From the sequence record PQ850617.1: DNA of 64,000 bases. The stretch is one strand, 5' to 3'. Of this stretch, positions 43,404 to 44,702 are shown piece by piece. Under the pieces are notes generated by a model. It was not told the origin of the DNA. It worked only from the letters and a program-made list of their open reading frames with translations, and ran no database searches. Position 1 is the first letter of the stretch. The number at the start of each line of letters is the position of its first letter. The DNA is from Escherichia phage ManiMatter_Bas94. Both the position numbers and the translations under genes were made by a program.

Positions 43404-44702
43404 TTAGTTATTTGTTTCTATGTCAAAAGAGAATCCACGACCCGCTTCATCGGCAAACCGAACTGTATGGGTTTGAGGCTCTAATACTTCAGGGTTGTTA
43501 GCAATAAAGCGATCAGCGAGACTACGACTGACAGTCTCAGCTAACTCTCCATGAGAAGGGATATCAAGATCACCAGCAGCAAAACCCTGACCAGAGAACT
43601 GACGTGCGCTAACAGTTAAACCATTTGGTCGACCATTAGAACGTCTAGACAACCACTGCTCAAATGAATCACTAGTAACACCAAGAGCCTCTTCAAAAGA
43701 TGTTCTACGAGTAGGGCTTACTCTTCGTGACTCTTGTGCTCGACGCATTGCAGGGGCTACAAACACCCCTTCAATTGCATTGTGTCGGTTAGGTTCGTCT
43801 TCTCGACCAAGCAGATCACCGCCTGTGTTAGTCGTTAAGTTTGTTAACCCTTCAGACCAATACGCACGAATCTGGCTAGAGCCATAAATGCTTGACATTA
43901 ACTGAATCTCTTCATAAGGTATATCAAAGAATCGACTCATATCTCGGTTAACACAATACTGAGCACTTGTTGTATCCTCAATAAGAGCAACCTGACCCCG
44001 TTCGTTGACCAGATGACTAACCGGCTGAGGTGTGGGAAGGTGTCGAGTTTGGGCCATGTATTGATATGCAGCTGCTGGAGAGGAAAATCTCAACACTTGC
44101 GAGTTAGGCCACTTCTTGTGAACATACCTGATTTCACGACTAGAAACAACCACTGGACAAGGGGCGGTCATAGCCAAGTATCCATGAGGGGTCATGAATA
44201 AGTTATCAAGAGTCATCGCACCACGGCACATCATAGGAAAATTATCCAATACCTCTTCAATAGAAGTAGGATAATTAAACATGAATTGGATACGAACACC
44301 ATTCCACTGAAACTCAATAATATCAGTGAATGTTAATTGAGAACCCCCAGCATATGGCTCATCTGTAGCTTCAACAAGAAGAGATGAATACTCAATATCT
44401 TGTGATTCAAGCCATTCCTTCACATTGCTTTCAATCTCCCGTCCAAGCATTTGCCACTGCTCGGCTGGGATAAAGGTATTTCGAGTTCTTGGTGTTTGTC
44501 CTCTGACAATAAAGATATCAATGTCATGTGGAGCTATGTTATTAAGAACAGCATCACGAATAGCTCCACCAGTAATGATAGGGCAAATACCATCTGGAAT
44601 CAAGTTGTTGTTAATCAACTGTTCAATGAAGTGACGACCAACAGTGATATCAGGTTGTTGAGCAACCTTATCTTCAATTCGGTTAATCGGGATAACAATC
44701 AT
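43404..44702 (-). CDS. Pol-beta superfamily nucleotidyltransferase (CCA-adding enzyme/poly(A) polymerase-like head domain)
   Basis: Start set to ATG 44702 (adjacent to exo stop); ITGGAIRDAVLNNIAPHDIDIFIV matches GGxxRD...DxD head motif. Confidence 0.5.
   Translation of the reverse strand: MIVIPINRIEDKVAQQPDITVGRHFIEQLINNNLIPDGICPIITGGAIRDAVLNNIAPHDIDIFIVRGQTPRTRNTFIPAEQWQMLGREIESNVKEWLESQDIEYSSLLVEATDEPYAGGSQLTFTDIIEFQWNGVRIQFMFNYPTSIEEVLDNFPMMCRGAMTLDNLFMTPHGYLAMTAPCPVVVSSREIRYVHKKWPNSQVLRFSSPAAAYQYMAQTRHLPTPQPVSHLVNERGQVALIEDTTSAQYCVNRDMSRFFDIPYEEIQLMSSIYGSSQIRAYWSEGLTNLTTNTGGDLLGREDEPNRHNAIEGVFVAPAMRRAQESRRVSPTRRTSFEEALGVTSDSFEQWLSRRSNGRPNGLTVSARQFSGQGFAAGDLDIPSHGELAETVSRSLADRFIANNPEVLEPQTHTVRFADEAGRGFSFDIETNN

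Follow-up and report, generated by a model that had tools for sequence, protein, structure and literature searches.

Class II tRNA nucleotidyltransferases of the Pol-beta type have two motifs in the neck, B (RRD) and D (EDxxR), by which the ribose is selected and the base templated; CCA-adding enzymes hold the tRNA by means of body and tail domains. Among phage-encoded proteins with a related head domain, two types lie closest to the gene considered here. One is the phiKMV gp16 type (PHROG 1614), which comprises stand-alone head-domain transferases of ~170-230 aa that podophages carry among their replication genes; in Pseudomonas phage LKD16, for instance, the gene of ORF16 (199 aa) is located between helicase and ligase. 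The other is Gad2 (Gabija anti-defence protein 2; SPbetaL7 ORF_159), a protein of ~400 aa belonging to an accessory anti-defence locus of SPbeta-like phages, whose verified anti-Gabija activity, predicted nucleotidyltransferase domain and toxicity on expression are described in the preprint of Yirmiya et al. (bioRxiv 10.1101/2023.05.01.538930).

A gene of comparable type is carried by Escherichia phage ManiMatter_Bas94 (PQ850617.1), a phiEco32-type coliphage, of which a stretch of 64,000 nt (the window) was analysed. The coding sequence occupies 43404..44702 on the minus strand, from an ATG at 44702 to a TAA at 43404-43406. A mechanical list of open reading frames carries the frame further, to a GTG at 44759; the product is nevertheless taken to be 432 aa long, since the N-terminus MI(V/x)IP, found in all 45 close homologues and in all distant ones, corresponds to the ATG at 44702-44700. 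PHROG 12715 'nucleotidyltransferase' is the protein's own family (3e-240), and the 'nucleotidyltransferase' of Bas93 is 93.5% identical to it. Annotation as such is not new, orthologues having long carried the label 'nucleotidyltransferase' or 'class II CCA-adding enzyme domain'. Judged from its fold and conserved residues, the product is probably a Pol-beta nucleotidyltransferase with a PolyA_pol head of the class II type, stand-alone and competent for catalysis.

A sequence-only reading of this stretch had described a 432-aa frame with a GGxxRD...DxD head of Pol-beta type, and this description is confirmed. Motif A (residues 43-66, ITGGAIRDAVLNNIAPHDIDIFIV; 44505..44576, minus strand) contains the GG pair, R49, D50 and the metal-binding carboxylates D60-x-D62; it reads GGAIRD(9)DID over residues 45-62, within GGAIRD...DIDIF. 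G45, G46, R49, D50, D60 and D62 are invariant in 37 family members, down to ~25% identity, and the motif A segment of the family profile aligned to the CCA-adding enzyme 6ibp with E = 0.003. D127 (codon 44322..44324, minus strand) is replaced, if at all, by E throughout the family; according to the alignment and the secondary structure of the model, it lies on strand 125-133 of the hairpin FTDIIEFQW-NG-VRIQFMF, which makes it a candidate third catalytic carboxylate. Residues 155-163 (44214..44240, minus strand) form the block FPMMCRGAM, with a near-invariant P156 and without RRD. By eye we take this block to be akin to class II motif B (RRDFTINA), and in the hhalign comparison of the family profile with a Gad2 profile it is aligned with the Gad2 block FDFTVCMGA.

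Since the full-length AlphaFold model obtained from close homologues was poor (pLDDT 47), a domain model from a diverse alignment was used instead. In this model, residues 1-270 (43893..44702, minus strand) are predicted to form the folded catalytic domain, a class-II-type head with a small mixed alpha/beta extension; conservation across the family is limited to about the first 215 residues. Structurally, the protein comes closest to poly(A) polymerase I and the CCA- and A-adding enzymes, with 150-165 residues superposed at TM 0.35-0.43. Matches to CdnE-type CD-NTases, TENT/FAM46 proteins, MenT toxins and DNA polymerases beta, X and mu were clearly poorer than those to class II enzymes, and these other proteins do not carry GGxxRD. 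A direct PDB sequence search with the single protein gave nothing meaningful. Structure and profile comparison agree on the head-domain fold of class II tRNA nucleotidyltransferases and poly(A) polymerases, with the catalytic carboxylates intact, as had been supposed from the N-terminus. The C-terminal tail, residues 271-432 (43407..43892, minus strand), is predicted to be disordered (pLDDT <50 over the last ~160 aa); it is Ser/Arg/Gly/Ala-rich, indel-prone and lineage-specific, holds 98 of the 117 gapped alignment columns, and cannot be aligned with the tail of Bas86. The claim that the ~350 aa beyond the head are devoid of an HD or tRNA-binding signature is correct, searches with Pfam, NCBIfam and PADLOC having revealed no further domains and no match to the PADLOC defence-system models, but the partition it implied has to be amended: the folded unit is ~270 aa long, rather than being the head alone, and only the ~160 aa that follow are predicted to be disordered. 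A C-terminal FSFDIETNN was considered as a relative of the exonuclease Exo I motif FAFDIESN; with 16 of 24 nt identical, and not being kept in all alleles, the resemblance is ascribed to chance.

The family is small and confined to phages: an exhaustive profile search, needed because word-index searches gave few distant relatives, found 32 representatives in 1.84 billion proteins, most of them 280-320 aa long. On profile evidence, PHROG 1614 is a remotely related sister family to PHROG 12715. Against its profile the window protein scores 1e-7 (1.1e-7) over residues 35-216, distant members of the window protein's family reach 2e-8 and LKD16 ORF16 1e-39, and a BFVD fold search returned small phage transferases of the phiKMV gp16 type as the nearest non-orthologous matches; hhalign against the single LKD16 sequence gave a probability of 37% only. 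Proteins of the phiKMV gp16 type share the stand-alone character and the location among replication genes, but are about half the size of the 432-aa window protein (core 215-270 aa), do not have the disordered tail, and are encoded next to different neighbours, with neither a split exonuclease subunit nor a deaminase.

The relationship to Gad2 appears remote, extending over ~100 head-domain columns at ~20% identity, with a Pfam match that is only 'weak'. This precomputed match to PF26128 'Gad2' occurs on most of the 45 close homologues, and Gad2 itself matches PHROG 1614 at 8e-6. When the family profile was compared by hhalign with a Gad2 profile of our own building, a probability of 89.6% was obtained (E = 1.9e-6, 99 columns), and one of 76% with the single Gad2 sequence. 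The similarity spans motif A, the IQxM strand and the FPxMC / FDFTV block of the N-terminal nucleotidyltransferase domain, whose GG, D and D columns align. The two proteins are also alike in being phage-encoded and acidic, and in combining an N-terminal predicted nucleotidyltransferase domain with a variable C-terminal part. They differ in that most Gad2 members have GGAITS instead of GGxxRD, and in that PolyA_pol is matched by none of nine Gad2 members versus 11 of 37 members of the window family. In addition, Gad2 is part of an accessory locus, whereas the window gene is a core gene of a replication operon at a fixed position. The protein can be grouped with phage-restricted, stand-alone head-domain transferases that include an experimentally verified anti-defence protein.

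Placement in a replication module and translational coupling to a polymerase exonuclease gene, both put forward in the sequence-only reading, are supported by the arrangement of the locus. Upstream lies the gene of the 3'-5' exonuclease subunit of a split family-A DNA polymerase (44704..45258, minus strand; Pfam DNA_pol_A_exo1 3.8e-9, PHROG 38876 3e-75), and downstream a dCTP deaminase-like gene (42861..43394, minus strand; Pfam DCD 3.6e-34). The junction with the exonuclease gene reads TAA-A-ATG (44700..44706, minus strand), a sequence arrangement of the termination-reinitiation type that recurs in relatives: the same spacing of stop, one base and ATG is present in Bas93, phiEco32, L002 and L008, and the gap is 2 nt in Bas86 and 17 nt in L009. 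After the transferase stop, a 9-nt spacer with the ribosome-binding site AAGGAA precedes the deaminase gene. Promoter and terminator scans inside the replication block gave hits at chance level only. The transferase was found in 97 phage records, as was the exonuclease subunit at an identity of at least 60%; the transferase gene seems to occur in all 97 related phage records, always flanked by the exonuclease and dCTP deaminase genes, and it adjoins the deaminase gene in every lineage examined. This synteny may be due merely to vertical inheritance of the entire module.

Although it keeps the same position in every sampled relative, the transferase has diverged far more than any other gene of a replication block that is otherwise 80-99% conserved. 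In comparison with Bas86, identity amounts to 93% for the helicase, 80% for the exonuclease, 33% for the transferase, 94% for the deaminase and 96% for thioredoxin, and DNA identity drops at 44702 to return at 43394. More distant relatives present the same picture, with helicase, exonuclease, transferase and deaminase identities of 77, 57, 26 and 81% in L008, and of 77, 58, 29 and 79% in L002. Against phiEco32, dN is 0.097 for the transferase and 0.002-0.037 for its neighbours, while dN/dS rises from 0.10 in the core to 0.36-0.42 in the linker and tail (0.42 in the tail); dN/dS against Bas93 is uninformative, there being too few substitutions. The transferase is therefore the fastest-evolving gene of the block, by several-fold to tens-of-fold over its neighbours, and this hypervariability is confined to the reading frame of a core gene at a fixed position. 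The pattern of divergence looks arms-race-like; as dN/dS is below 1 everywhere, however, it points to relaxed constraint or allele replacement, and positive selection is not demonstrated.

What the enzyme acts on can be approached from its resemblance to tRNA enzymes, since the lead idea of the sequence-only reading was CCA repair of tRNA. According to this explanation, the protein would repair tRNA 3' ends or add A tails to RNA, either to counter host nucleases that attack tRNA or to change how stable RNA is. The structural matches named above fit it, motif A is near-identical to the class II consensus, and homologues bear the CCA-adding domain label in public records. Nevertheless, only the head is common to both, which makes that public label misleading: despite the resemblance of its head, the protein is, by its sequence features, not a CCA-adding enzyme. 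The PF01743 score of 16.7-17.6 bits falls short of the cut-off of 23, PolyA_pol at E <= 0.01 is reached by only the 11 of 37 family members already mentioned, and the alignment ends near position 80 of the 126 in the profile. Of the NCBIfam models, those for CCA and PcnB do not match the window protein, and its relatives attain 12-15 bits against cut-offs of ~290-305. Only motif A aligns with canonical tRNA enzymes, hhalign against E. coli CCA giving a probability of 15%. A direct reading of residues 1-270 found neither an RRD nor an EDxxR string, the family having FPxMCR and RDxxYxxKK in place of the neck motifs, and searches for PolyA_pol_RNAbd and tRNA_NucTran2 found no match, so that neither RNA-binding body nor tail domains are seen. 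Compared with class II tRNA nucleotidyltransferases and poly(A) polymerase I (PF01743; PDB 3aql, 1miv, 4wby, 3h37, 1ou5), of which little beyond the head superposes, the protein further stands apart by the absence of an HD domain, an acidic core (pI 4.9, also the family median), the ~160-aa disordered tail and a phage-only family. A phage tRNA is an unlikely substrate: ARAGORN found no tRNA in the window, and the one weak Rfam tRNA-like element there, which could be counted in favour of repair and does not encode CCA, has no D arm, is common to only four relatives and lies under an annotated CDS. Finally, divergence down to 33% identity within a single frame between neighbours that are 80-96% identical is not what one would expect of a housekeeping tRNA enzyme, whose substrate is invariant. 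With its sub-threshold domain scores, missing neck motifs, missing body and tail domains and acidic core, CCA repair fails as a lead idea, and tRNA repair or tailing of any kind is distinctly unlikely.

In the available text of Humolli et al. 2025, exactly this fully syntenic locus of deaminase and nucleotidyltransferase is singled out, and DNA modification is proposed for it. Such a pathway, in which the neighbouring dCTP deaminase would also take part, would account for the resistance of Gordonclarkvirinae to restriction; it agrees with the constant adjacency of the two genes and with the occurrence of 12 EcoRI and 32 EcoRV sites in the window, which are not avoided, so that site avoidance alone fails to explain resistance to these two enzymes. 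This explanation is nonetheless unlikely. To our knowledge, no class-II-type Pol-beta transferase makes base modifications, and the deaminase is more simply understood as a source of dTTP, the genome having 42% G+C and also encoding thioredoxin and ThyX, the latter of which speaks against dU-DNA in the style of PBS1. The related PHROG 1614 transferases of phiKMV-type phages have no adjoining deaminase, one would not expect the gene of a biosynthetic enzyme whose substrate, a small molecule or DNA, stays fixed to diverge more than the rest of its block, and strong avoidance of CCWGG, PstI, KpnI and NcoI sites suggests that the DNA is exposed to sequence-specific enzymes. A housekeeping accessory of the replisome, which would join the 3'-5' exonuclease subunit in acting at the 3' ends of DNA or primers (for instance, by untemplated addition and trimming at genome termini or in concatemer processing) and play no part in conflict with the host, is somewhat unlikely. 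It would fit a core gene at a fixed position whose coupling is kept down to ~26-29% identity, the similar placement of the phiKMV-type relatives, and the fact that the exonuclease subunit ranks second in divergence within the block, a possible sign of co-evolution; the extreme divergence and lineage-specific disordered tail would, however, be unusual next to partners conserved at 80-99%, no DNA-binding module was detected, the domain is acidic, and well-studied replisomes have no known homologue. The notion that the transferase fold is degenerate and serves for binding only, as an inert scaffold or decoy, might appeal, since the protein evolves fast, is acidic, has a disordered tail and scores below the Pfam threshold, but it is extremely unlikely given the invariant motif A residues, the ever-acidic position 127 and the low dN/dS of the core.

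The best reading of these data is a Gad2-like counter-defence or host-interface enzyme, which we favour tentatively, at somewhat less than an even chance. On this proposal, the transferase would be made together with the replication proteins through termination-reinitiation and, with Mg2+, would transfer a nucleotide from an NTP or dNTP to a hydroxyl group, the likeliest acceptor being the 3' end of a nucleic acid tied to replicating phage DNA, or else a host factor; the outcome would be the blunting of a nuclease-based host defence, as Gad2 does to Gabija. Catalysis would reside in the conserved core, and recognition of partner or target in the rapidly changing linker and tail. Action on DNA ends during replication, the third option of the earlier reading, is compatible with this evidence. 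Against counter-defence it can be held that anti-defence genes are usually accessory and situated in variable loci, unlike this core gene of a replication operon, and that the available text of the BASEL study (Humolli et al. 2025) gives no Gabija phenotype and describes these phages as sensitive to Fun/Z only.

A bolder form of the counter-defence proposal, which we regard as unlikely, would attribute to the transferase the broad resistance that Gordonclarkvirinae show towards nuclease-based immunity. As a replisome-coupled, Gad2-related enzyme it would nucleotidylate the phage DNA wherever that has ends or nicks, or else a sensor of the host, and so blind Gabija, RecBCD-linked systems and possibly restriction enzymes, with the hypervariable linker and tail tracking host targets. 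If true, this would explain how the whole Gad2 / phiKMV-gp16 superfamily works. Natural alleles that are ~33% identical between near-identical flanks constitute a handy experimental handle, and allele swaps together with catalytic mutants in the BASEL phages Bas86-93 could reveal the role of such phage enzymes. A homologue from SU10 has been seen by mass spectrometry.

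The phage under study is a phiEco32-like coliphage (subfamily Gordonclarkvirinae, genus Kuravirus), and its nucleotidyltransferase gene has previously been annotated and discussed in the literature; the annotated 'nucleotidyltransferase' of the BASEL phage Bas93 is 93.5% identical to the window protein. The gene occupies 43404-44702 (-) and encodes 432 aa from an ATG at 44702. A mechanical ORF list runs on to a GTG at 44759; the ATG is regarded as the start because an N-terminal MI(x)IP is present in all homologues, even those only ~25% identical. Upstream, at 44704-45258 (-), lies a separate gene (Pfam DNA_pol_A_exo1) that supplies a split family-A DNA polymerase with its 3'-5' exonuclease subunit. 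A single base stands between the stop codon of this gene and the transferase start (TAA-A-ATG), a junction in keeping with the predicted translational coupling of the two genes. The order primase-helicase, exonuclease subunit, transferase and dCTP deaminase is the same in all six lineages examined (Bas93, phiEco32, the BASEL phage Bas86 and the metagenomic relatives L002, L008 and L009), which vertical inheritance of the whole module may suffice to explain. The one-base spacing recurs in four of these six, the gap being 2 nt in Bas86 and 17 nt in L009. The transferase and the exonuclease subunit (at least 60% identity) are each found in 97 phage records, and these equal counts, matched by number only, suggest that the transferase is a core gene.

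The GGxxRD...DxD head recognized in the sequence-only reading is present at residues 43-66 (ITGGAIRDAVLNNIAPHDIDIFIV). Its residues G45, G46, R49, D50, D60 and D62, together with I128 and Q139, are invariant down to ~25% identity; over the same range, Y117, P156, Y193 and K197 vary little or not at all, and residue 127 is Asp or Glu without exception. This pattern is that of an active enzyme, and activity is predicted from it. The Pfam PolyA_pol head model scores 16.7 bits against the transferase, below the cut-off of 23, and reaches E <= 0.01 in 11 of 37 family members (best 2.5e-4), while the family profile matches solved CCA-adding enzymes at E = 0.003, limited to 27 residues of motif A. 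The full-length AlphaFold model is poor (pLDDT 47, with residues 269-432 below 50); residues 1-270, remodelled with a diverse alignment, give pLDDT 89 and pTM 0.85. Inspection of the family alignment by eye also reveals an aromatic-Ser/Thr-x-Gly-Leu/Arg motif at residues 282-286 (43845-43859 (-)), which reads WSEGL here and WSxGL, YSxGR or FRxG elsewhere. It is roughly kept ~60 residues past the catalytic core, lies near the C-terminus in short members of ~280 aa, and could serve for docking or as a site of modification.

Identity with a CCA-adding enzyme is rejected, as motifs, domains, curated models, profile comparison and charge all stand against it. Neither RRD nor EDxxR occurs in residues 1-270, and Pfam detected no HD domain and no RNA-binding body or tail domain, as the earlier remark on missing HD and tRNA-binding signatures had anticipated. 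The NCBIfam CCA and PcnB models do not match the transferase, its relatives scoring 12-15 bits against cut-offs near 300, and the core is acidic family-wide (median pI 4.9, median charge -10). In hhalign, the family profile reaches 15% probability with E. coli CCA, the sole canonical CCA sequence used for calibration. Thus, what had been observed in the sequence was confirmed and its interpretation borne out in part: the head and the junction stand, and the suggested repair of tRNA 3' ends is not supported. With the resemblance of the head domain as the sole feature it fits, and no convincing phage-encoded tRNA substrate in the window, tRNA repair is considered improbable. A tRNA-like element at 59422-59500 (-) scores 33.4 bits with the Rfam tRNA model (gathering score 29) and is not called by ARAGORN. 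Its anticodon loop, CUUCUAA, would read UCU (Arg), its D arm has only 4 nt and its variable region 20 nt, and CCA is not encoded at the 3' end (...CAUCCUCA then CUAG); the segment is common to only four related phages, where it is annotated as a hypothetical protein.

An exhaustive profile search among 1.84 billion representative proteins returned 32 matches in total, and no canonical tRNA nucleotidyltransferase is among them. The majority have 280-320 aa and align only from profile position 1 to about 215-260; therefore, the N-terminal domain is the conserved unit and the Kuravirus tail (residues 271-432) a lineage-specific addition. Within PHROGs, the transferase belongs to family 12715 (3e-240), with a second match over residues 35-216 to family 1614 (1e-7), a small protein named 'nucleotidyltransferase' that many T7-like phages encode. 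In LKD16, for instance, ORF16 (199 aa, flanked by helicase and ligase) matches family 1614 at 1e-39, and in the viral structure library no non-orthologous neighbour is closer than proteins of this type. Most close homologues also carry a precomputed Pfam annotation, marked weak, as PF26128 'Gad2'. A profile built from Gad2 and eight homologues in the supplement of the Gad2 paper aligns with the family profile along 99 columns (probability 89.6%, E = 1.9e-6), with motif A at one end of this stretch, the FPxMC / FDFTV block at the other and the IQxM strand between them. Against single sequences, the same method gives 76% for Gad2 and 37% for LKD16 ORF16, and Gad2 itself matches PHROG 1614 at 8e-6. 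Gad2 (Gabija anti-defence protein 2) comes from SPbeta-like phages. Knocking it out renders the phage Gabija-sensitive and a homologue restores resistance; the SPbetaL7 protein proves toxic on expression, and a nucleotidyltransferase domain is predicted by AlphaFold (bioRxiv 10.1101/2023.05.01.538930); according to a 2026 review, no mechanism has yet been established. We conclude from these profile comparisons that a single group of stand-alone head-domain transferases, restricted to phages, probably has as its branches the present family, the phiKMV gp16 type and Gad2, the link to Gad2 being remote. Of the three, the present family has the motif A closest to the canonical form.

Within the replication block, the transferase is the gene furthest diverged. 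Amino acid identity between phiEco32 and the window is 99.7% for the helicase, 94.5% for the exonuclease and 96.6% for the deaminase, against 82-83% for the transferase (phi32_73; core 89%). For Bas86, the transferase falls to 33% (core 39%, tail unalignable), with the helicase at 93%, exonuclease at 80%, deaminase at 94% and thioredoxin at 96%; L008 (helicase 77%, exonuclease 57%, transferase core 26%, deaminase 81%) and L002 (helicase 77%, exonuclease 58%, transferase 29%, deaminase 79%) behave alike. At the DNA level, identity to Bas86 is ~70-90% in the helicase and exonuclease genes, 25-65% from the transferase start, and again 96% at the deaminase start. In the phiEco32 comparison, transferase dN is 0.097 versus 0.002-0.037 in neighbouring genes, and dN/dS, nowhere above 1, rises from 0.10 for the core to 0.36 for the linker and 0.42 for the tail; therefore, the transferase chemistry is kept and the remainder is quick to change. 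Either selection, whether relaxed or diversifying, or the replacement of alleles within conserved flanks would account for this rapid change. In Bas86, L008 and L002 alike, the exonuclease subunit ranks second in divergence within the block, and may co-evolve with the adjoining transferase.

The best fit, a tentative one, is a host-interface or counter-defence enzyme produced alongside the replisome, since a core gene in fixed position behaves as a hypervariable cassette while retaining an intact active site and kinship to a verified anti-defence enzyme. A housekeeping role in the replisome would be consistent with coupling to the exonuclease gene and with core-gene status, but is at odds with the divergence, and appears unlikely. 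Somewhat more doubtful is the proposal, in the BASEL study (Humolli et al. 2025), that deaminase and transferase jointly make a DNA modification: dTTP supply, with ThyX and thioredoxin, is a simpler role for the deaminase in a 42% G+C genome, the ThyX gene speaks against dU-DNA, and a biosynthetic enzyme is not expected to be the fastest-evolving gene of its block.

The same study describes the phage group as remarkably resistant to restriction-modification systems, to which the pattern of site avoidance in the window (64 kb, 42.4% G+C) is relevant. Relative to mononucleotide-based expectation, CCWGG is strongly avoided (4 observed, ~75 expected), PstI, KpnI and NcoI sites are absent (~11 expected each), SalI (1 site) and BamHI (2) are likewise avoided, and GATC occurs 131 times against ~239 expected; EcoRI (12), EcoRV (32) and HindIII (25) show no avoidance. 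An HNH_3 homing-type endonuclease ORF at 41353-41847 (-), between the deaminase and a Dps-like gene, is missing at the Bas93 locus, in line with the remark in the BASEL study that the locus is syntenic but for homing-endonuclease insertions. An Endonuclease VII-type ORF (34624-35136) breaks up the polymerase part (34046-36596 (-)), which lies ~8 kb from the exonuclease gene, and the Bas93 polymerase is annotated as a two-piece joined CDS around such an ORF. The transferase C-terminus FSFDIETNN (43407-43433 (-)) resembles the Exo I motif FAFDIESN at the exonuclease N-terminus (45217-45240 (-)), with only 16 of 24 nt identical; some alleles have another ending, and the likeness is probably due to chance. 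Finally, at 47262-57210 (-), upstream of the replication genes, a conserved cluster comprises GGACT (gamma-glutamyl cyclotransferase), ATP-grasp/RimK-like (a call from the Bas93 annotation), glutamine amidotransferase, Amidoligase_2 and phiEco32-type COOH-NH2 ligase genes, and is also found in the distant relative L002.
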